NCBI GenBank assembly: GCA_039588295.1
Contig: JBDHAB010000002.1
Location: forward strand, 14,766 to 78,765
Source: Gemmatimonadota bacterium
Lineage (GTDB): Bacteria > Gemmatimonadota > Gemmatimonadetes > Gemmatimonadales > GWC2-71-9
Direction of reading: 5' to 3'
Length of the DNA stretch: 64,000 nt
How positions within the stretch are numbered: position 1 is the first letter of the stretch; every line of letters begins with the position of its first letter. The position numbers and the translations under genes were made by a program. Positions 2,183-25,989 of this stretch are shown here, in pieces. Below the pieces are notes generated by a model. It had not been told where the DNA came from, ran no database searches, and worked only from the letters and a program-made list of their open reading frames with translations.

Positions 2183-3841
2183 TTATTGCTCCCGTCGAAA
2201 GACCACCTTCCCCGCCACGAGGGTTAGGTCCACCGTCGTATCCTCGATGTCCGCCGGATCAATCGTGAAGATGTCGTCGGCCAAGACCGCGAGATCGGCA
2301 TACCGTCCGCGCTCCAGCGTCCCCAGCTCGTCCTCCAAAAAGGCCGCATAAGCATTGGCCGAGGTGTAGGCCGCCACAGCTTCTTCAACGGTGATCTTCT
2401 GCGCCGGTACCCAGCCGTCTGGATTCGCCCCGTCAATGGTGCGGCGGGTCACCGCAGCGTAGATCCCAAGCAGTGGGTCGATCGGCGCCACCGTCCAGTC
2501 GCTGCCAAACGCCAGTCGAGCCCCGGCGTCCGCCAGGTCGCGAAACGCATAGGTGGTCTTGATCCGCTCCGTGCCGATCCGCTTCGCCGCCCAGCGTCCG
2601 TCGTCGATCGCGTGGTACGGCTGCATGGACGGAATCACTCCGTCCTCAGCCGTGCGCCGAACCGCATCGGACGTAAGATGCTGGGCGTGCTCGATGCGAG
2701 CACGGCGATCGCGCGTTCCGTGGCGCTGCCGCGCCTCTGCAAACAGCTCGAGCAACCAGTCGTTGGCCCGATCTCCAATTGCGTGCACGATGAGTTGGAG
2801 CCCCGCCTCATCGGCTGCGAGAACGCTCGCCCGCAGCTCGGCGGTGTCGGTGACCATCAATCCCGCGGTGGTGGGATCGTCCTCATAGGGCTCGTAGAAC
2901 CACGCCGTGGTGGAGCCAAGCGACCCGTCGACGAATCCTTTGACGCCGCCCCAGAACAAGTGGTGGTCGCCGCGACCCTCACGCTCGATGTAGTGCGCCA
3001 GCCGTTCCCAGGTCGCGATCGGCACCACGGAGTACACGCGAAGGGGTAGTGCACCCTGTGATCGTGCGCGACGGTACGTCTCGTGACCCGCCCACGTCCC
3101 CATATCTGTGATCATCGTGACCCCGCGCTCGACGGCGTGAGCCACGGCGGCGCGCAGCGCGCGGTCGAGTTCCGCCTCCGACGGATCGGGAATCACGCGG
3201 CTCATGACGGACATCGCCGCGTCTTTGAGGACGCCTGTGGGCCGGCCATCCAGGTCCCGCACAATGGTGCCGCCCGGTGGGTCCGGCGTGTCCGGCGTCA
3301 CGCCGGCCAGCTCCAACGCCCTCGTGTTGGCCAGTCCCATGTGACCGTCGAGCCGGCTCACGAACACTGGGTGATCCGGGGTCAGCGAGTCGATCCAGTC
3401 TCGGTGGGGCAACTCTCCGCCCCACAGCTCATGGTCCCAAGTCCCGCCCGTGACCCACTCGTTAGGGTGGGCGGCCGCAAATGCGCCGATCCGCCGGGCA
3501 AACTCCTCCGGGGTCGCTGCGTCACGCAGCTGCACCGCAGCGAGCTCGAAGCCGCCGGCGATGAAGTGCGTGTGGGCGTCGATGAACCCCGGCACCACTC
3601 GTCGACCCCGCAGATCGATCCGGTCCGTCCTCGGGCCGACGAATCCGAGCACCTCCGCATCGGACCCAATGGCGAGGACGCGTTCCCCACGGACCGCGAG
3701 CGCGGTTGGCTCGGAGGGTCCGGGACCGCCTGTCCAGATCCGACCGCCCACGAGCACCAAATCCGCCACCTGTCCCGAGGCACTCATCGGCATCCCGACA
3801 CACAACACCGCACATAGTCCCCCAACCCGTCGCCACCACAT
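2183..3841 (-). CDS. Amidohydrolase 3 / YtcJ-like metal-dependent hydrolase, probably secreted
   Basis: PGFIDAHTH, KGFVDGSLG, HAIGDRA, RIEHAQ, GSDW; signal-peptide-like N-terminus from ATG 3841. Confidence 0.9.
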   Translation of the reverse strand: MWWRRVGGLCAVLCVGMPMSASGQVADLVLVGGRIWTGGPGPSEPTALAVRGERVLAIGSDAEVLGFVGPRTDRIDLRGRRVVPGFIDAHTHFIAGGFELAAVQLRDAATPEEFARRIGAFAAAHPNEWVTGGTWDHELWGGELPHRDWIDSLTPDHPVFVSRLDGHMGLANTRALELAGVTPDTPDPPGGTIVRDLDGRPTGVLKDAAMSVMSRVIPDPSEAELDRALRAAVAHAVERGVTMITDMGTWAGHETYRRARSQGALPLRVYSVVPIATWERLAHYIEREGRGDHHLFWGGVKGFVDGSLGSTTAWFYEPYEDDPTTAGLMVTDTAELRASVLAADEAGLQLIVHAIGDRANDWLLELFAEARQRHGTRDRRARIEHAQHLTSDAVRRTAEDGVIPSMQPYHAIDDGRWAAKRIGTERIKTTYAFRDLADAGARLAFGSDWTVAPIDPLLGIYAAVTRRTIDGANPDGWVPAQKITVEEAVAAYTSANAYAAFLEDELGTLERGRYADLAVLADDIFTIDPADIEDTTVDLTLVAGKVVFRREQ

Positions 3842-3990
3842 AGGCTCTCTCCAGGTAAGCCGTCGCCACTCATGCGTCCGCCGCTCATTGGACCCGATCT
3901 GAACTTCGCGCCGGTCTGACGGCGGGGCAAGCAAGTGGTGCCGCACCATCGCCGCAGCCTGAGGCCCGTCCGCCACGGCGAAATAAGAGA

Positions 3991-4038
3991 TGTGAGCAAG
4001 CACTCACAAAACCCTGCAACAGAAGTGAGCGCTCACTT
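3991..4038. promoter_or_regulatory. Two palindromic operator-like sites in the divergent intergenic region
   Basis: TGTGAG-N6-CTCACA (3991-4008) and perfect AAGTGAGCGCTCACTT (4023-4038). Confidence 0.5.
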
Positions 4039-4159
4039 AATTATCGCCGGGTTGCGAGGGCGCATCACCACCAGTAGTACAAGCGTAACTAATACGACCA
4101 CATCAGGTTAGGCGCTCATCCGCTACCGCGTTGGCTCCCCACAGGCTACATTGATACCG

Positions 4160-17300: not shown

Positions 17301-19931
17301 TCAGTTGCCGTACTCCTCTAGCAACCGCTGAAACCGCGGGTGGCCGCGCAGCAGATTCCACGTGGGGTCGACTCTGAGCATTGCAACGGACGTGGGTGAG
17401 GGAACAGCCAGCAGGATCTCCAGTTGGTCAATAGCGGCGTCGTACTCGCCCACCGTGGTGTAGATACGCGCCAGGTCTTCAGCCCTGTAGGCGCCCATAT
17501 AGGCTTCCTTGCTCATGGGAAGTAGCTCAACAGCTGACTCACCTTCGCGGATCGCATCCTCCCTGCGACCGAGACCAGCATAGGCGATGCCCAGAGCACT
17601 CCGGTACCGAGAATCATCGGGGCGCTGCTCCACCCTGGCCTCGAGAACGGAGCGCGCCGAGTCATAGTAGGCTTGTTCGAGCTGCCGGCTCCCCATGAGA
17701 CCGTAAATCTCGGCATGAAGCTGGGCCTTCGGCACAAAGCGGTCTTGAAAGTCGACCACGAATTCGGACGAGATCGAGGCAAGCCTGTCGAGCGCTTCCT
17801 CATAGTCCCCATCCCATATCTTGAGCAGAATCCACGAATACACGATGCCGACGTCCTCTCCAATGCCGGCCCGTTCAGCCTCCTCCAGCACTAGTGCTGC
17901 CCTTTCCGCGCTGCCTTCCAAGCGGAGGTGCAGAAACGCTGCCTTGTTTCCATAGGGGGCGGCCCAATCAGGCGTCAGGGAAATGGCGCGGTCATAGAAG
18001 CGTCCTGCCTCCGTAGGGTTGCGCAAGAGGAAGTAGGTTTCCGCAACCTCGTTGACCCTAACCGCAGAACGCGGGTCAAGCTCTGTAGCCTTCTTGAAGT
18101 TGGCCGCTGCCTCTTCGAACTTCCCCTGCCGCCGCTGCACGGCAGCGATGCCGAAGAAGAGCTCGCTGTTGTTGGGCTGGCCTTTCCGCGCAATCGCAAA
18201 CTCGGCAAGGGCAGATTCATAGTCGAGCTGACCCTGGTAATAGTAGAACGCCAGAGCCCAATGTGCTTCCGGTAGGTCGGGAGCGAGCCGCAAGGCCTGG
18301 TCCACCGCTTCCTTTGCAGCTGTCACACGCTGTTCGGTCCGGTCGTAGACCAACCACCACATCCTCATATGGGCCCGGCAGAGCCGAGCATATGCCAACG
18401 CGAAATCCGGGTCCAATCGGACCGCATTCTCGTACATTAGGACGGAGGCCCGAGTCGTCTGCTCATCGGCGTTACGATGGAAGTAATCATGGCCCCGCAG
18501 GTAGTAGTCATACGCCTCCAGGTTGTCCGTCGGCCTTGCAGCCAGGCGTTGACGCTCAGGCTCGAGCAGGGTCACATCCAATGCCCCAGCCACCCGCTCA
18601 GCGATTTCCGCTTGGACGCGGAAGATATCGCCCGCCGCGAGTTCCACAGTACCTGGCTCCGACCACAAGGGCGCATCGTCTGAGACACGGATGAGCTGCG
18701 GGATGATACGGACTTGATCGACACCATCGGGCACACGATCCACTCGCACCGTACCCTCGAGCACATAGTCCACGCTCAGCTCAGCCCCGATCTCAGGGAG
18801 CGTCATCTCGTGGTCCTTATACTGCATCGCACTCGTGCGGGAGATGACAAAGAGCCCACTAAGGTTGGACAGCCGACTTATGATCTCGTCCGTCAATCCG
18901 TCGGCAAACTGTTCGTCGTCCGGTGAGCCAAGGTTCTCGAACGGGAGCACGACGAGCCTTGGCGGACCCTCGGGCTCTGCGCTGAATGGCCACGCGACCA
19001 GCATCAAGATTGCCACCAGAGCGACAACCCCAATCGAGACGAGAACCGGCACGGTCAGTTTGCGTCTCGCCGGGGTGCGGTGTGTGGCAACACTCAGCCG
19101 TTCTACGCTCAGCACCTCACCGAACTGCGCCGCCGTGCCGAAGCGATCGGCTGGCACCTTGGCCAAGGCCTGTTCGACAGCAACCTCGACGCTCGTTGGC
19201 ACACGCCCCCGCACCACCGAAATGCGCGGCGTCGCTTCACTCAGCTTCTTCGCGACAATCGCTTGCGCGCTCGGGCCGGTGTACGGCGGCTCACCCGCGA
19301 GCATTTCATACAACACACAGCCCAGTGAGTAGACATCACTCCTTCCGTCGAGCTTGTCCGCTCCGCTTGCTTGCTCGGGACTCATGTACGCGGGGGTACC
19401 GATGCTGATGCCCGTTTCGGTCAGATGCTCACCACCTGCCTCGGTAATGGCCCTGGCAATGCCGAAGTCGGCAACTACTGCTTCACCCGCCGAGAGCAAT
19501 ACGTTCTCCGGCTTGATGTCGCGATGGATCACATCGTGGCTGTGGGCATAGCTCAGGGCCGCTGCTACTTCACGAGTAATCTGCAAGGCGTCGTCGAGTG
19601 GCAGTTGCCCTTCCCGATTCATCCGGCCCCGCAACGTCTCGCCCTCGATGTAGGGCATGACGTAGTACAGGAAGCCGTCGGCTTCACCCGAATCGTGGAG
19701 CGGCAGGATGTGAGGGTGCGTGAGGTTTGCGGTCACTTCGACTTCGCGGAGGAACCGCTCGGCGCCGATGGCTGCGGCTAACTCAGGGCGCAGGACCTTG
19801 ATCGCTACCTGGCGATGATGCTTCAGGTCCTCGGCGAGGTAGACCGTTGCCATCCCACCACGGCCCAACTCCCGCTCAAGAGTGTAGCGGTCGGCAAGGG
19901 CGATTTTGAAGCGGTTGAGATCGTCGGCCAT
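17301..19931 (-). CDS. Hanks-type Ser/Thr protein kinase with TM, TolB-N-like and TPR domains
   Basis: LGRGGMATVY, HRDIKPEN, DFG, GTPAYMSPEQ; VVLPFENL...ADGLTDEI; TPR helices. Confidence 0.95.
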   Translation of the reverse strand: MADDLNRFKIALADRYTLERELGRGGMATVYLAEDLKHHRQVAIKVLRPELAAAIGAERFLREVEVTANLTHPHILPLHDSGEADGFLYYVMPYIEGETLRGRMNREGQLPLDDALQITREVAAALSYAHSHDVIHRDIKPENVLLSAGEAVVADFGIARAITEAGGEHLTETGISIGTPAYMSPEQASGADKLDGRSDVYSLGCVLYEMLAGEPPYTGPSAQAIVAKKLSEATPRISVVRGRVPTSVEVAVEQALAKVPADRFGTAAQFGEVLSVERLSVATHRTPARRKLTVPVLVSIGVVALVAILMLVAWPFSAEPEGPPRLVVLPFENLGSPDDEQFADGLTDEIISRLSNLSGLFVISRTSAMQYKDHEMTLPEIGAELSVDYVLEGTVRVDRVPDGVDQVRIIPQLIRVSDDAPLWSEPGTVELAAGDIFRVQAEIAERVAGALDVTLLEPERQRLAARPTDNLEAYDYYLRGHDYFHRNADEQTTRASVLMYENAVRLDPDFALAYARLCRAHMRMWWLVYDRTEQRVTAAKEAVDQALRLAPDLPEAHWALAFYYYQGQLDYESALAEFAIARKGQPNNSELFFGIAAVQRRQGKFEEAAANFKKATELDPRSAVRVNEVAETYFLLRNPTEAGRFYDRAISLTPDWAAPYGNKAAFLHLRLEGSAERAALVLEEAERAGIGEDVGIVYSWILLKIWDGDYEEALDRLASISSEFVVDFQDRFVPKAQLHAEIYGLMGSRQLEQAYYDSARSVLEARVEQRPDDSRYRSALGIAYAGLGRREDAIREGESAVELLPMSKEAYMGAYRAEDLARIYTTVGEYDAAIDQLEILLAVPSPTSVAMLRVDPTWNLLRGHPRFQRLLEEYGN

Positions 19932-20148: not shown

Positions 20149-20511
20149 ACGCTTCGGGAAAGGTCGCTAGCCCGAGTGGGAAGGACAAGATGAGACGGGG
20201 CAAGTTACGCGCTGGCGCCACGGGTACACTCAGTTTCCGCGGGGTTTTCCCTCGAAAAATGCGACCGTAGTCACTCTCGAGTGGGCCTCCACCGACGTGT
20301 GCTTCCCTCGTAAAACACGGGTCTTCTCCAGGAGGCTCCTGATCTCATCGTGCGATTTCCCCTCGACGGACAGCCGTGTTTCCGAGGGGTGCCGGGTTGG
20401 GAGATTGCGATTTCCCCTCGGAAAAAGGCTTGTTTCCCTGGGAGAAAGTCTTACTTTGGGGGGCGTACAGGGGCTGGTCATCCTCCATTCACGACCTTCT
20501 CTGAGGTTCAC

Positions 20512-20772
20512 ATGGCGAAGAAGAGACGCAAGACGAAGAAGAAAGCCACGAGAAAGAAGAAGGCCACGAGGAAGAAGAAGGCCACCAGGAAGAAGAAGGC
20601 TACCAGGAGAAAGAAGGCCACGAGAAGGAAGAAGACCGCAAAGAGGAGAGTGAAGAAGAAAGCGGCGAAGAGGAGAAAGAAGGCTACGAGAAGGAAGAAG
20701 GCTACGAGAAGGAAGAAGGCAGAAGAAGGCTACGAGAAAGAAGAAGGCCACCAGAAAGAAGAAGCCCGCTAA
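20512..20772 (+). CDS. Histone H1-like Lys/Arg-rich repeat region; likely the frameshifted N-terminus of the SWIB protein
   Basis: GAGGT RBS, ATG 20512; repeated (K/R)KKATR units; frame breaks at about 20720. Confidence 0.7.
   Translation: MAKKRRKTKKKATRKKKATRKKKATRKKKATRRKKATRRKKTAKRRVKKKAAKRRKKATRRKKATRRKKAEEGYEKEEGHQKEEAR
20536..20765 (+). repeat. Degenerate 18-nt coding tandem repeat (AAGAAGAAGGCYACSAGR)
   Basis: Directly visible purine-rich repeat units. Confidence 0.9.
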
Positions 20773-20809
20773 GAAGAAGCGGGCGAAGCGGAAACCCAGC
20801 GCGGCTTTC

Positions 20810-21046
20810 ATGAAGCCGGTGACGCCCGATGCCAAGCTCGCCGCTGTCGTCGGGTCGACTCCACTGCCGCGGACACAGCTCACCAAGAAGCTGTGGGCCT
20901 ACATCAAGCGGCACCGGCTGCAGGACGCCAGGAACCGCCGCATGATCAACGCGGACGCGGCGCTGAAGGCGGTCTTCAACGGCAAGTCCCAGGTGAACAT
21001 GTTCGAGATGACCAAGTTGGTGAACAGGCACCTGATGAAGAAGTAG
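20810..21046 (+). CDS. SWIB/MDM2 domain protein
   Basis: (SAAF)MKP..P...LAAVVG..PLPRT...KKLW.YIK...LQD..NRR.INAD..LK.VF.GK..V.MFEMTKLV. Confidence 0.95.
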   Translation: MKPVTPDAKLAAVVGSTPLPRTQLTKKLWAYIKRHRLQDARNRRMINADAALKAVFNGKSQVNMFEMTKLVNRHLMKK

Positions 21047-21318
21047 CAACGGCCGCGACGCAGTCGGCTGTAGCCGTTGAGGCAGGTTGTAGTGGTAGTT
21101 GGTGTTTCCTAGCAGGCCCAGTATTCCAGCCCCGCTTTGGGGGGTCGGCGCGCCCGCCGGCCCCCAAGAGGCCCCCCCCAAACAAGACGCTTCGCCTGCC
21201 TCGTTTCGTATCACAGCGACTCGTTTTGGTGCGGTCTTACGCAGCGTGACCGGCATCACCCGCTGCATCAAGTCGCTGTCAGGATTGTCGTTAGCTCCGT
21301 GGGGTGCCGATGGACCGA

Positions 21319-21335
21319 ACGGCACCCGCCTTGCG
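21319..21335 (+). promoter_or_regulatory. sigma54 -24/-12 promoter
   Basis: CGGCAC-CCGCC-TTGCG, GG(21321)-N10-GC(21333), about 80 nt upstream of ATG 21412; a sigma54 activator lies in the same gene run. Confidence 0.75.
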
Positions 21336-21411
21336 AATTGATGGCCCCGGAACGCTCGCCCGCTCTGGGCAGCAAGGACTGGAACCGAACGACAACGTGG
21401 AGGATGGATTC

Positions 21412-22185
21412 ATGAAACGCATCGCACTGACCCTGACAGCCGCTCTCGCTCTTGCGGCGTGCTCCGACGGCGCGGGCCCGGGTGGGCAACCCGGCGTGTC
21501 GCTCTCATTCTCGACACGCGCCCCCGGCGCCCAACCGACCGCTGGCTTCTTCGCAAGCGTGATGGCGGACACACTGATGGACGGGCAGAACGAGCTCATC
21601 ATTACGCAGGTCGAGATCGTGCTGCGCGAGATCGAGCTGAAGCGGCAGGAGGCATTTGCTTGTGACTCGAGCTCCAGCTCCGGCGTCGACAACGACGATT
21701 GTGAGGAGTTCGAGGTCGGTCCAACGCTCGTAGATCTTCCGCTGAACGGCACCACGGAGACCATGGTTACGATCGACATTCCGGTGGGAGCCTACGACGA
21801 ACTCGAATTCGACTTCCACAAGGTCAGCAACGACGACCCTGAGGACGCCGCTTTCCGGGCGCAGCATCCCGATATGGTCGGCAAGAGCATCCGGGTCCGT
21901 GGTACGTTCAACGGCGACGACTTCACCTTTGAAACGGACCTGAACGTCGAGCAAGAGTTCGACCTCGTCCCGCCACTCGTAATCGACGATGCAACGGTCT
22001 CGACCAACGTGACCGTGCTGGTCAATCTGGCTCGGTGGTACCAGGACGGGTCGGGCACGCTCCTCAACCCTGCCAGTGGCAACAAGGGTGGCGTCAACGA
22101 GAGCATCATCACAGAGAACATCAAGCAGTCTATCGAGGCCTTCGAGGACGAAGACCGCGACGGTGACGATTCGGATGAGAGCTGA
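21412..22185 (+). CDS. Acidic lipoprotein of unknown function (DUF4382-like), paralog 1
   Basis: GGAGGA RBS; lipobox LAAC; VLREIELKR; Cys pair; C-terminal DEDRDGD. Confidence 0.85.
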   Translation: MKRIALTLTAALALAACSDGAGPGGQPGVSLSFSTRAPGAQPTAGFFASVMADTLMDGQNELIITQVEIVLREIELKRQEAFACDSSSSSGVDNDDCEEFEVGPTLVDLPLNGTTETMVTIDIPVGAYDELEFDFHKVSNDDPEDAAFRAQHPDMVGKSIRVRGTFNGDDFTFETDLNVEQEFDLVPPLVIDDATVSTNVTVLVNLARWYQDGSGTLLNPASGNKGGVNESIITENIKQSIEAFEDEDRDGDDSDES

Positions 22186-22263
22186 GCCTCAGCCACGCTC
22201 GATGGAAGACCGCTGCGCGTGCTACATTGCACGCGTAGCGGCTTCCACGAGTTGGAGATTCTG

Positions 22264-23013
22264 ATGAAGCAGATAGGAGTTGTGCTGGCACTGGCCGGCA
22301 GCGTGGTCCTCTCGGCATGCAGCGATCCCACCAACCTCGAGCTCAAGGGCGGTGTGGCGGTGTCGTTTGCGACCCGAAGCCCTGCCCCGAGCGCACCGGC
22401 GCTCACTCCAGCCGTCGCACTCGATGACACCATCATCGGTGGCACCGACACCTTGATCGTTACCCGCGCTCAAGTCGTGCTACGCGAGATCGAGCTCAAG
22501 CGGCTCGAGACGGCGGACTGCGACGTGGAGCCCGAGCCGGCCGGCTGCGAGGAGGTCGAGGTGGGACCGGTGCTCGTTGACCTACCGCTCGTGCCAGGGG
22601 CCGAGCAACAGTTTTCAGTCGAGATTCCGACCGGAACCTATACCCGGATCGATTTCGAGGTGCACAAAGTCGGTAATGATCCCGAGGATCTCGCGTTTCT
22701 CGCCCAGCACCCTGAGTTTGCCGAGAAGAGCATCCGTGTGGAGGGAACGTTCAACAGCCAGGCATTCCTCTTCGAGAGTGACTTGGATGTCGAGCAAGAG
22801 ATCGATCTGCAGCCGCCGATGCTGCTCGCCGAGAACACGAACACCAACGTGACGATCTTTGTGGAAATCGATACCTGGTTCCGCGATCAGGACGGGACGC
22901 TGGTCGATCCCGCGACCGCCAACAAGGGCGGTCCCAACGAGAGTGACGTCAAGAACAACATCCAAAACTCGCTGAAGGCGTTTGAGGACCCGGATGGCGA
23001 CGGCTTGGACTGA
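22264..23013 (+). CDS. Acidic lipoprotein of unknown function, paralog 2
   Basis: Lipobox LSAC; shares VLREIELKR, CEE.EVGP.LVDLPL, KSIRV.GTFN, NKGG.NES, AFED.D.DG with paralog 1. Confidence 0.85.
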   Translation: MKQIGVVLALAGSVVLSACSDPTNLELKGGVAVSFATRSPAPSAPALTPAVALDDTIIGGTDTLIVTRAQVVLREIELKRLETADCDVEPEPAGCEEVEVGPVLVDLPLVPGAEQQFSVEIPTGTYTRIDFEVHKVGNDPEDLAFLAQHPEFAEKSIRVEGTFNSQAFLFESDLDVEQEIDLQPPMLLAENTNTNVTIFVEIDTWFRDQDGTLVDPATANKGGPNESDVKNNIQNSLKAFEDPDGDGLD

Positions 23014-23036
23014 ATGTCACCGGGCGGGCTCACGCG

Positions 23037-24362
23037 ATGAGTGACCGCCCCGCAATCGCGATCGTCCCGCTCTCGGAATCCTTCCGCCGAGCGTGGGATG
23101 ACATCGCTGCCGAGGTGGGCGCCGATGCCGTCGAACTCCAAGAGGCGGCGGCTCCTCCGGCCAATACCGTCGTCGTGATCGTGGCTGCCGGCGGGGAGGA
23201 AGACCGTGCGCTCGACATGGTGTCCGGCATCCAGCGCCCTGCGGGGGTTCCCCTCTATCTGGTCGGCGCCAAGGCCTCTCATCGGTTTGCCGTCGAGGCC
23301 CTGCGCCGTGGCGCCACCGACTACTTCGCGTTCCCCCAAGACCTCGACATCCTGCGGCGGAGCGTCGGCTCACGAGTGGATGCCGCGAGGGAGCGGTTCC
23401 GTCCAGCCGACGGTGAGGCAACCCGTGACACCTTTGAAGCACTCCAGGGGCAGAGTGACGCGCTCAACAGCGTGCTCGAGGCGGCCCGCCGCGTGGTGCG
23501 CCATGCGAGTGTGACGGTGCTGATTCAGGGGGAGACCGGCACCGGCAAAGAACTCTTGGCTCGGGCGCTGCACGAAGGAAGCCCGCGGAGTCAGGGGCCC
23601 TTCGTGGCGGTCAACTGCGCCGCGATTCCGCGAGAGCTCATGGAGAGCGAGCTCTTCGGACACGAGCGCGGGGCGTTTACCGACGCGCACGCCGCCAAGC
23701 CGGGACTGTTCGAGGAGGCGCACCGAGGCACGCTCTTCCTCGACGAGATCGGGCACCTGCCGTTGTCGCTCCAGGGGAAGCTCCTTCGTGCGCTCGACGA
23801 CCGTCGGATTCGTCGGGTTGGCAGCACCCAGAGCCGGGAGATCGACGTCCGGATCATTACGGCAACCCATGTCCAACTCGACGAAGCCGTGCGGGAAGGT
23901 GGATTCCGCGAGGATCTCTACTATCGCATCAACGTCGTGACGTTGACGCTGCCCCCACTCCGCGAGCGGGCTGCCGACATCGATCTCCTCGCAGGCCACT
24001 TCGCCGAGCGACTCGCCGCTCGGTACGGCCTGCCGGCACCACGCATCACTCCCGAGGTTAGCACCGCGCTGCGGGGTTATCGGTGGCCCGGCAACGTACG
24101 GGAGCTCCAACATTCGGTCGAGCGCGCGTTATTGCTTTCCGACCCCGGGACGCTCAACCCCGCGCACCTGACGCCACAGGCACCACCCGCCCGCGCCTCC
24201 TCTGGGGGAGCCATTCCGTTTCCGGCCACGGTCGACGAGATCCTCGCGGCTGCGGCGCGCGCCGCGATTACGCAGTACGGGGGTAACAAGACGGCTGCGG
24301 CACGGCAACTCGGGATCTCACGTGCCAGACTCCAACGCCTGCTCGAGCGCGGTGAGGCATGA
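23037..24362 (+). CDS. sigma54-dependent transcriptional activator with a degenerate receiver domain
   Basis: GETGTGKE, ESELFGHERGAFTDA, LFLDEIG, FREDLYYR, WPGNVREL, Fis-type HTH GNKTAAARQLGISR. Confidence 0.95.
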   Translation: MSDRPAIAIVPLSESFRRAWDDIAAEVGADAVELQEAAAPPANTVVVIVAAGGEEDRALDMVSGIQRPAGVPLYLVGAKASHRFAVEALRRGATDYFAFPQDLDILRRSVGSRVDAARERFRPADGEATRDTFEALQGQSDALNSVLEAARRVVRHASVTVLIQGETGTGKELLARALHEGSPRSQGPFVAVNCAAIPRELMESELFGHERGAFTDAHAAKPGLFEEAHRGTLFLDEIGHLPLSLQGKLLRALDDRRIRRVGSTQSREIDVRIITATHVQLDEAVREGGFREDLYYRINVVTLTLPPLRERAADIDLLAGHFAERLAARYGLPAPRITPEVSTALRGYRWPGNVRELQHSVERALLLSDPGTLNPAHLTPQAPPARASSGGAIPFPATVDEILAAAARAAITQYGGNKTAAARQLGISRARLQRLLERGEA

Positions 24363-25375
24363 TGATGACCGGACCGCCGCATTCCGCCGACTTCGACGAT
24401 CCCCTCGTGAACGCTCGACGAGCGGTCAACGTGAGTCGGTTCCAGGATGCCTGGACGGAACTGAATCGCCTCCCCGAGCCCGTGCGGACGTCACCCGAAG
24501 GTCTGCTGCTCGGTGCGATGGCGAGCTGGCGGCTCGGCGAGTTCGTGCGCAGCCGCACGGCCGCACTGCAGGCGCGCGATGGGTTTCGGGCGCGCGGCGA
24601 CACCGACGGCGAGATGCGCGCCGAGAACGTCGCCGCAGCCGGCGCGTTCGCGCTGGGCAACATGGACGAGGCCGAACGCGGTTTCACCCGGGCGCTCTCC
24701 CTGGCCGATGAGCTGGGGGACGATCTCATGATGGCGCGCTGCGCGAACAACCTTGGCAACGTCGCCTACTACCGGTCCCGCTACGAGAGCGCACTGAGCT
24801 TCTATCGTCTGGCGACCGCCAATTTCGAGAAGCTCACGTTTTGGAAGGGATTCGCCGAGAGTTGGCTCAACTCGGCAATCGTGCTGCACGACGCTGGATC
24901 GTTCGAGGCCTCACGGGAAGCGGGTGCACGCGCCGTCGAGGCAGCCGAGCGTTCCCGCGATGAGCGGGTACTGGGACAGGCGCTGGCAGCGCGCTCGGAG
25001 GCCGAAGTCGCGCTTGGAGATCTCGCACTGGCACTGGCACAGGCCACACGGGCCCTGGCGCTCGCCCAGTTGCACGAGCATGTGGTTGGTGAGGCGGACG
25101 CACTCCGGATCCTGTCGGTGATCGCGCGACTCAGGGGCCAGGCCGATCATGGAGAGGCGTTTGGGCGACGGGCGCTCGAGATCGCCCAGCGGGTAGGTGA
25201 TCCGTGGCGACGTGCTGAGATCCAACGCGACCTGGGAACGCTCTACGCGGCCGTTGGCCGCGCGCGGGATGCCGCCGCGGCGTTCAGCGACGCCGCGAGG
25301 GCGTTTGACGCCCTGGGTGCGGAGTCGCGCGCCGCCGCAATGCGCGAGCAGGCGGCGGCAGCGAACCAGAGCTAG
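24359..25375 (+). CDS. Tetratricopeptide-repeat protein
   Basis: ATGA overlap with the activator; repeats such as ARCANNLGNVAYY and AEIQRDLGTLY. Confidence 0.85.
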   Translation: MMMTGPPHSADFDDPLVNARRAVNVSRFQDAWTELNRLPEPVRTSPEGLLLGAMASWRLGEFVRSRTAALQARDGFRARGDTDGEMRAENVAAAGAFALGNMDEAERGFTRALSLADELGDDLMMARCANNLGNVAYYRSRYESALSFYRLATANFEKLTFWKGFAESWLNSAIVLHDAGSFEASREAGARAVEAAERSRDERVLGQALAARSEAEVALGDLALALAQATRALALAQLHEHVVGEADALRILSVIARLRGQADHGEAFGRRALEIAQRVGDPWRRAEIQRDLGTLYAAVGRARDAAAAFSDAARAFDALGAESRAAAMREQAAAANQS

Positions 25376-25989
25376 AAGAGACTCGGCTGCGCCAGCGGCG
25401 CGAACGAGATCCGGTGGTGTGGGGTCGGCCCGGTCCGGGCCAAGGTGGTGAGATGGTGATGCGTCGCGTAGCCCTTGTTCTCCTCCCAGCCGAAGCTCGG
25501 GTACCGCGGCGCGAGTCTCGCCATGAGGCGATCCCGGGCACACTTCGCCAGCACCGACGCCGCCGACACCGACTGACACAGGCCGTCTCCCCCAACCACG
25601 GGCTCGTGCTCCCGGCCCAACTCCGGCAGCGCGTTCCCGTCGAGCAGCACATAGTCCGGCGCGACCCGTAGACGACGCATGGCACGGCGCATCGCGAGAG
25701 CCGTCGCGCGCCGGATGTTCATCCGGTCGATCTCCCGCACGGAGGCCCCGCCCAGCGCCCACGCAACAGCGGCTCGCCTGACTTCTTCGGCGAGCCGTTC
25801 TCGTTCGGCTGCAGTCATGAGTTTGGAATCGCGCAGGCCCTCGAGTGCGGCCTGCCCCGGTGGAAACACCACCGCGGCGGCAATCACCGGACCGGCGATA
25901 GGACCCCGCCCCACCTCGTCCAGCCCGGCAACGGTCCGGAAACCCTTCGCCCAGAGCGCCCGCTCGCGCTCAAGCGTCGGGTCCGCCAC
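25372..25989 (-). CDS. rnhB: Ribonuclease HII
   Basis: AGLDEVGRGPIAGPV, LRDSK, LLDG, SAASVLAK, NKGY.T, HR.SF. Confidence 0.97.
   Translation of the reverse strand: MADPTLERERALWAKGFRTVAGLDEVGRGPIAGPVIAAAVVFPPGQAALEGLRDSKLMTAAERERLAEEVRRAAVAWALGGASVREIDRMNIRRATALAMRRAMRRLRVAPDYVLLDGNALPELGREHEPVVGGDGLCQSVSAASVLAKCARDRLMARLAPRYPSFGWEENKGYATHHHLTTLARTGPTPHHRISFAPLAQPSLF

Follow-up and report, generated by a model that had tools for sequence, protein, structure and literature searches.

We analyzed a group of four genes in a 64-kb stretch of DNA (64,000 nucleotides [nt], here called the window) from a Gemmatimonadota bacterium (assembly GCA_039588295.1, contig JBDHAB010000002.1, positions 14,766 to 78,765), which an earlier note had described from the sequence alone as a self-contained sigma-54 unit. 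All four genes are encoded on the plus strand, between a SWIB-domain gene (20810-21046) and the convergent gene for RNase HII (25372-25989). The first gene, lipA (21412-22185), encodes an acidic lipoprotein of 257 amino acids with the lipobox LAAC and, in its structural model, an MbnP-like fold. Its paralog lipB (22264-23013) encodes 249 amino acids and harbors the lipobox LSAC. LipA and LipB share 48 to 49% identity, so that the two paralogous lipoprotein genes announced in the note were indeed present. The third gene, ebp (23037-24362), codes for a sigma-54 activator, or bacterial enhancer-binding protein (bEBP), of 441 amino acids that was recognized by its Pfam domains. The fourth, tpr (24359-25375), codes for a cytoplasmic tetratricopeptide repeat (TPR) protein of 338 amino acids (TPR_12, E value of 4.8e-21). 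Its start codon overlaps the stop codon of the activator gene in an ATGA at 24359, in agreement with the coupling of both genes proposed earlier. No signal peptide was seen in the TPR protein when its sequence was read by eye, and no added enzymatic or DNA-binding domain was present. rpoN was found in the source genome.

A conserved sigma-54 promoter and a tandem dyad upstream of lipA

An element with the spacing of a sigma-54 (-24/-12) promoter is located on the plus strand at 21320-21335, with the GG at 21321-21322 and the GC at 21333-21334. The exact sequence GGCAC-N5-TTGC occurs only once in the window. At least one such match was also obtained in 43 of 100 shuffled sequences, and a single match is not significant on its own. 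We analyzed 32 upstream regions of homologous lipoprotein genes from across the phylum, from which duplicate loci had been removed, as well as locus L019, where the start codon could not be placed. An element scoring at least 19 of 22 was present in 26 of these regions, compared to 5% for shuffled sequences, and the conserved elements sit 61 to 166 nt 5' of the start codon. The -24/-12 site that the note had placed at 21321/21333 is thus convincing because it is conserved in relatives, and not because of its exact match to the consensus. A scan for sigma-70 promoters between 20700 and 25700 gave no match, and the two terminator-like sites detected in the same interval, both on the minus strand, are fewer than shuffled sequences predict.

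An unsupervised expectation-maximization motif search, made without positional prior, covered the 31 regions whose promoter element scored at least 17, L030 being dropped. It returned a 17-bp imperfect dyad of 18.2 bits with a log-likelihood of 245, compared to 49 to 59 and about 10 bits for five shuffled sets. In 29 of the 31 regions, the best dyad site preceded the promoter element by 91 to 127 nt and fell within one 43-nt interval, while shuffled sets placed at most 10 to 12 best sites in any interval of that size. Upstream of lipA, site 1 (21197-21213, plus strand) is such a dyad, starting with TG and ending with CA (21.8 bits). Site 2 (21217-21233, plus strand) is a weaker copy (12.2 bits) located exactly 20 bp downstream. 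Two copies with this 20-bp offset, each of at least 12 bits, were also found in L008, L016, L020, and L027. We take the 17-bp TG...CA frame and its distance from the promoter to resemble those of NtrC-type enhancers.

The whole 4.5-Mb genome was then scanned with a matrix derived from the orthologous promoters, which divergent sites could escape. Four dyad sites of at least 17 bits were detected, of which only 21197-21213 has a sigma-54-like promoter 85 to 135 nt downstream. Since this combination of enhancer and promoter occurs once in the genome, at this very locus, the four-gene unit looks self-contained.

The note had assigned the enhancer role to nested inverted repeats instead. A 9-nt pair does exist, with arms at 21213-21221 and 21271-21279, outside the conserved system, but no second, nested pair of at least 8 nt was reported at 21213-21279. 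At least one 9-nt pair was obtained in 18.5% of 1,000 Markov simulations of the 381-nt region, and none of nine related upstream regions harbored an inverted repeat of at least 8 nt at the matching place. The left arm of the repeat falls between the two conserved dyads. Being at chance level and missing from the nine relatives, the repeat was rejected as an enhancer. Judging from conservation, the enhancer is the tandem 17-bp dyad at 21197-21233 and not the inverted repeat.

The activator and its predicted TPR partner

Pfam assigned to the activator a Sigma54_activat domain (PF00158, E value of 1.3e-69), an AAA lid, and a helix-turn-helix (HTH) domain (HTH_8, E value of 1.8e-5). A receiver-like domain, hereafter the pseudo-receiver, occupies residues 1 to about 122. 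It is followed by the AAA+ domain (137-303) with the GAFTDA loop (212-217), the lid (309-384), and the HTH (409-434). The Walker A and B residues are invariant across 18 aligned family members, 15 of which carry the GAFTDA loop. The AAA+ and HTH domains are thus intact, as the note had stated. According to excerpts of a study on NorR (PMC2941729), the G266D variant of that protein, in which GAFTGA becomes GAFTDA, stays active and still forms open complexes. The source genome contains 16 strong sigma-54 activator matches, and GAFTDA is found in three pseudo-receiver activators and in one other. The activator scored below every equivalog cut-off of NCBIfam. It combines the features by which bEBPs are recognized, namely, an AAA+ domain with Walker motifs, a variant of the GAFTGA loop, an HTH, rpoN in the genome, and a -24/-12 target.

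The N-terminal 135 residues scored only 12.3 bits against Response_reg, for a cut-off of 30.2. A model of this domain built from 19 family members (predicted local distance difference test [pLDDT] score of 91) displays the beta-alpha order of a receiver and gave 98 matches to solved chains at an E value of 0.001 or lower. CpaE/TadZ atypical receivers, FleR, MicA, and LuxO were among the top matches. The residues needed for phosphorylation are replaced at all key positions. In the activator of the window, S-E stands at the acidic pair, V/A at the phospho-acceptor aspartate, G at the Thr/Ser position, and F at the lysine. Across the family, these positions harbor S-(D/E), then V, L, I, or A within a conserved AGGEE stretch, then G, and finally F or L, with the next proline retained. 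The acceptor residues are missing in all 19 aligned family members, compared to the canonical receiver-type activators of the same genome. The loss of receiver residues described in the note thus holds throughout, with the receiver fold being kept. The domain retains a strongly conserved pocket (SDSF, AGGEE, SHR, and DYFxLP), and the former active-site loops are its best-conserved part. For this reason, the loss of the acceptor residues is a stable trait of the family rather than a recent decay. Helix 5 of the pseudo-receiver is long (residues 103-121), which may recall activators whose receiver holds the AAA+ domain via a coiled-coil linker.

No HATPase_c domain was found on the 207-kb contig that contains the window, in agreement with the absence of a histidine kinase noted earlier. 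By comparison, 10 of the 16 activators of the source genome have an HATPase_c domain within 2.5 kb. The three pseudo-receiver activators are located on contigs C2, C32, and C84, and none of these contigs carries such a domain. The earlier description of a kinase-less, self-contained sigma-54 unit with a pseudo-receiver activator is therefore supported.

Modeling of the TPR protein together with the activator, which the note had suggested as a check, was done in one complex prediction, for which activator residues 1 to 385 and the full-length TPR protein were supplied together with the alignments of their families. The median score of three runs was 0.69, while the best of three controls reached 0.29. 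At least 81% of the contacts were common to the runs, with a partner pLDDT of at least 88. In the calibration of the tool, 116 of 157 solved complexes attained this mark, as did 2 of 215 mismatched pairs, counts that apply only roughly here because our own alignments were used. The model supports the view that the TPR protein binds the activator. We know of no solved complex between a bEBP and a TPR protein, and none was found among the solved relatives of the activator AAA+ domain and of the TPR protein. It is thus unlikely that the prediction merely reproduced a known structure. On the activator side, the confident interface comprises residues 187-205, D216 of GAFTDA, 218-228, 329-331, and 362-367, all in the AAA+ domain and the lid; it contains no pseudo-receiver residues. 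On the TPR side, it involves the repeats spanning residues 106-231. Among solved structures, the TPR protein is closest in sequence to Pins (5.8e-27), LGN/GPSM2 (1.1e-24), RapJ (3.4e-10), and AfsR (2.2e-9). Binding of a peptide or ligand by the TPR protein would be a matter of resemblance to peptide-binding TPR superhelices.

Conservation of the unit and features of its lipoproteins

Of 301 genomes sampled from the phylum, 123 contain the lipoprotein family, which is represented in 62 of 127 genera. We examined the neighborhood of 20 lipoprotein loci and found the activator in 17 of them and the TPR gene as well in 16. The order lip-ebp-tpr on one strand was seen in 15 loci, and three showed neither gene in the stretch covered. 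Starting from the TPR protein, one genome per species was scanned, and the best 80 of the 240 relatives found were analyzed. Seventy-eight of these are labeled Gemmatimonadota or a lineage within this phylum (including "Bacterium HR33"), and the other two are labeled Candidatus Eisenbacteria and just "bacterium." An activator gene lies upstream of the TPR gene in 62 of the 80 loci. In 41 of the 47 closer loci, a distance of -4 to 103 nt separates the end of the activator gene from the TPR gene; for the remaining 6, less than 1.3 kb of sequence is available on the upstream side of the TPR gene. Of the 33 loci that are more distant, the activator precedes the TPR gene in 21, with a lipoprotein gene intervening in 20 of these. 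This order of activator, lipoprotein, and TPR genes is also seen in L102, which comes from a metagenome-assembled genome labeled Gemmatimonas. Searching conserved neighborhoods, as the note had advised, thus showed that the four-gene set is co-conserved. In one complete genome (L043, G127:C1, 4382-6489), the unit looks decayed: the activator shows no match beyond residue 271, the matching part directly adjoins the TPR gene, and only a fragment is left of the lipoprotein copy upstream.

The source genome itself harbors two paralogous units, in which a pseudo-receiver activator is followed by a lipoprotein of a second family and then by a TPR protein. They are located on contigs C32 (L052, 1291-4658) and C84 (L053, 2707-6113). 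The activator of the C84 unit is split over two frames (2707-3330 and 3167-4099), as a result of either a frameshift or faulty assembly. In 11 of 16 units of this type that were examined, the interval between the activator and lipoprotein genes contains a sigma-54-like element. There, too, the TPR gene belongs to the regulated transcript. In addition, TGGTACG-N4-GTGC recurs just upstream of the activator gene in L103, L105, L115, and L129 (near 2500-2700), in L052 (1282), and in L053 (2656). This suggests that the activators of the paralogous units may also stand behind sigma-54-like promoters. L104, L107, L112, and L126, which belong to the distant TPR loci, contain three to five matches to the second lipoprotein family, with three to four copies in tandem upstream of the TPR gene. 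When the second family was compared to LipA by profile, the alignment was confined to the signal peptide and the first residues of the mature protein, and on this comparison the two lipoprotein families are not shown to be related. A shared mature N terminus, C-SD-x-TGP, was considered as a recognition tag and rejected, C-SD being the commonest start among 197 crude lipoprotein candidates.

The model of LipA (pLDDT of 82) had MbnP (7l6g_A) as its best match among solved structures, with a Z score of 10.9 and a root mean square deviation of 3.7 over 181 residues; the next match had a Z score of 6.1. With Foldseek, the match between LipA and MbnP was weak (E value of 0.0097). The Pfam model MbnP gave weak matches in 9 of 43 family members (best E value of 0.001), and DUF4382 matched 4, while LipA and LipB of the window themselves gave no match to the MbnP model at an E value of 1 or lower. 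A language-model atlas listed MbnP and DUF4382 for the lipoproteins (0.89), as leads only. In open-access full text, DUF4382 turned up in one unrelated paper. A profile search of solved structures with the lipoprotein alignment gave a single chance match (E value of 1.5), and neither LipA and LipB nor the second lipoprotein family is covered by a model in NCBIfam.

Read by eye, the lipoprotein alignment contains no conserved WxW motif, which is described as a hallmark of MbnP in the available part of a recent paper (PMC11951088). The sole invariant tryptophan, W209, is followed by F or Y. No MbnH-type peroxidase is encoded nearby, the only CCP_MauG match of the genome being on contig C99. A pair of cysteines surrounds an acidic loop (C84 in at least 90% of the members and C97 in all), and H136-K137, W209, and an acidic FEDxDxDG tail are conserved as well. 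Our guess is that these lipoproteins bind a cation or metal in the envelope.

Further features were noted around the unit. A G+C-rich hairpin is located directly after the SWIB gene (21134-21172), with a minimum free energy of -30.4 kcal/mol and a z score of only -1.55. Its sequence is near-invariant in seven loci of several genera, with variable flanks; it occurs only once in the genome and is without match in Rfam. The hairpin may represent a terminator lacking a T-run or a structured RNA. An Rfam search of 20600-21450 returned only a microRNA match, which was discarded as being at chance level (E value of 0.17). Upstream of the SWIB gene, an open reading frame (20350-20772) encodes Lys/Arg-rich repeats of the KKKATR type in the style of histone-like basic proteins. 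Finally, the minus strand carries, 1.5 kb upstream of the four-gene unit, a gene (17301-19931) for an 876-amino-acid Ser/Thr protein kinase with a long C-terminal TPR region (Pfam Pkinase, 1.9e-49).

A probable autoregulated operon, its proposed restraint, and its relation to known systems

The gene content, the conservation of promoter and enhancer, the loss of the receiver residues, the absence of a kinase, the co-conservation, and the interface of the predicted complex were all computed. From these we consider it probable, though far from assured, that lipA-lipB-ebp-tpr is a sigma-54 operon that regulates itself, with the TPR protein restraining it as an anti-activator. On the evidence of the conserved sequences, a dimer of the activator would bind, via its Fis-type HTH, the two 17-bp dyads, which begin at distances of about 120 and 100 nt from the -24 element on its upstream side; the activator would form an AAA+ ring and drive open complex formation at the sigma-54 promoter from which it is itself transcribed. 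The pseudo-receiver would keep the fold of a receiver and be unable to take up a phosphoryl group, and for this reason no histidine kinase would be involved. Synteny and the complex prediction suggest that the cotranscribed TPR protein covers the base and flank of the GAFTDA loop as well as the lid, which would block either contact with sigma-54 or assembly of the ring. Because tpr sits in the operon that it controls, this would establish a negative feedback. By analogy with NifL-NifA and NorR, some cue may remove the TPR protein or act on the remodeled pocket of the pseudo-receiver. The output would be two acidic envelope lipoproteins of MbnP-like fold, possibly binding cations or metals. The direction in which the TPR protein acts, the signal, and the function of the lipoproteins are what we infer here.

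Several points weigh against this reading. All the support is computational; the complex score is a confidence of the model and not a measurement, and the computed evidence does not favor inhibition by the TPR protein over activation. The interface residues of the activator are mostly those conserved in all bEBPs, and those of the TPR protein are mostly not the invariant ones, which leaves the specificity of binding unexplained. The conserved pseudo-receiver pocket plays no part in the predicted interface and would thus represent a second input that is also left unexplained. Moreover, 12 of the 33 distant TPR loci contain no activator in the stretch covered, and several of these have up to four or five tandem copies of the second-family lipoprotein gene.

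The TPR protein could also be a positive cofactor that aids assembly of the activator or its engagement with sigma-54, the operon then being a positive feedback loop. Co-conservation and predicted binding fit this equally well, as does the location of ebp and tpr within the operon that they control, and TPR chaperones do act as coactivators in the regulation of type III secretion. However, in the predicted complex the TPR protein lies over the flank of the loop needed for contact with sigma-54, and the AAA+ partners to which we compared it are inhibitory, namely, NifL (excerpts of PMC12998190) and, in cis, the GAF domain of NorR (excerpts of PMC2941729). We see only a small chance for a cofactor. 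A similarly small chance is left to the TPR protein being cargo of the unit instead of a regulator, for instance a cytoplasmic chaperone or scaffold of the lipoproteins, with the activator being constitutive or run through its pseudo-receiver alone by a ligand or protein. Indeed, conservation within the pseudo-receiver is highest in the former active-site loops, pseudo-receivers often bind ligands through these regions according to the accessible part of a review (PMC12632262), and the paralogous activator-TPR pairs always travel with lipoprotein genes, in two families. Yet the predicted complex passes its controls, and the TPR gene follows the activator even where the lipoprotein family is a different one. 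A reading along the lines of the earlier note, with the long inverted repeat as enhancer and with the pseudo-receiver as the place where the TPR protein gates the activator, appears very improbable to us. The repeat exists, and its left arm lies between the conserved dyads, but the dyads are the conserved elements, the repeat is at chance level and missing from nine relatives, and the confident interface is formed without the pseudo-receiver.

We give a slim chance to a further reading: the activator-TPR pair might be a phylum-specific sensor of lipoprotein or envelope status that works by partner switching, the logic of secretion-coupled regulators being applied to sigma-54. If so, the TPR groove would accommodate one of two ligands, the GAFTDA-loop region of the activator or a peptide of the co-encoded lipoprotein precursor, and export or accumulation of the cargo would set the transcription of its own genes. 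This would explain why activator-TPR pairs always flank lipoprotein genes, in two families. Gemmatimonadota are common in soils and sediments and have been little studied, and the four-gene unit is widespread and multiplied in this phylum. Because the promoter, the enhancer, and the predicted interface are defined, the system is amenable to direct tests, and it would offer a first entry point to the control of pseudo-receiver activators and to a lipoprotein family without annotated function.

Sigma-54 activators are usually switched by kinases, by ligands acting on their own domains, or by a few anti-activators. Pseudo-receiver activators with a partner, such as FleQ-FleN, and anti-activators of AAA+ domains are already known. 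In the open-access full text searched, we found no TPR partner of a bEBP and nothing relevant on sigma-54 in Gemmatimonadetes, nor the link to lipoprotein genes or the expansion in the phylum. On the lipoprotein side, the closest relative in fold is MbnP, a copper-binding protein of methanobactin operons, but unlike MbnP, the lipoproteins described here lack the WxW motif and have no MbnH-type peroxidase gene nearby. The TPR protein is similar to LGN/Pins, kinesin light chain, Rap, and AfsR-type TPR_12 proteins, which are protein- or peptide-binding scaffolds and in some cases regulate response regulators; this is a generic similarity between repeats.

In PspA-PspF and HrpV-HrpS, an anti-activator acts on the AAA+ domain of the bEBP, and the partner is often cotranscribed. 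Similarly, a trans-acting protein restrains the bEBP via its AAA+ domain in NifL-NifA, as stated in excerpts of PMC12998190. Unlike in the present case, where binding is only predicted, the partners in these three pairs are not TPR proteins. FleQ-FleN of Pseudomonas is similar in that a receiver-like domain without phospho-acceptor, the lack of a kinase, and modulation by a separate partner come together (excerpts of PMC12632262), and in sequence, the AAA+ domain of the activator has FleQ chains among its top matches. Pfam did not report the FleQ N-terminal domain family for the activator, and FleN is not at the locus, where the adjacent gene is tpr; no search for FleN was made elsewhere in the genome. 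Unlike in FleQ-FleN, the partner here is a TPR superhelix, and the targets are lipoprotein genes instead of flagellar or biofilm genes. According to excerpts of PMC2941729, the GAF domain of NorR represses by targeting the GAFTGA surface that contacts sigma-54. The predicted TPR interface (D216 and 218-224) likewise adjoins GAFTDA, and the natural GAFTDA of this family corresponds to NorR G266D. Unlike in NorR, whose own GAF domain represses in cis, a separate protein would exert this function here.

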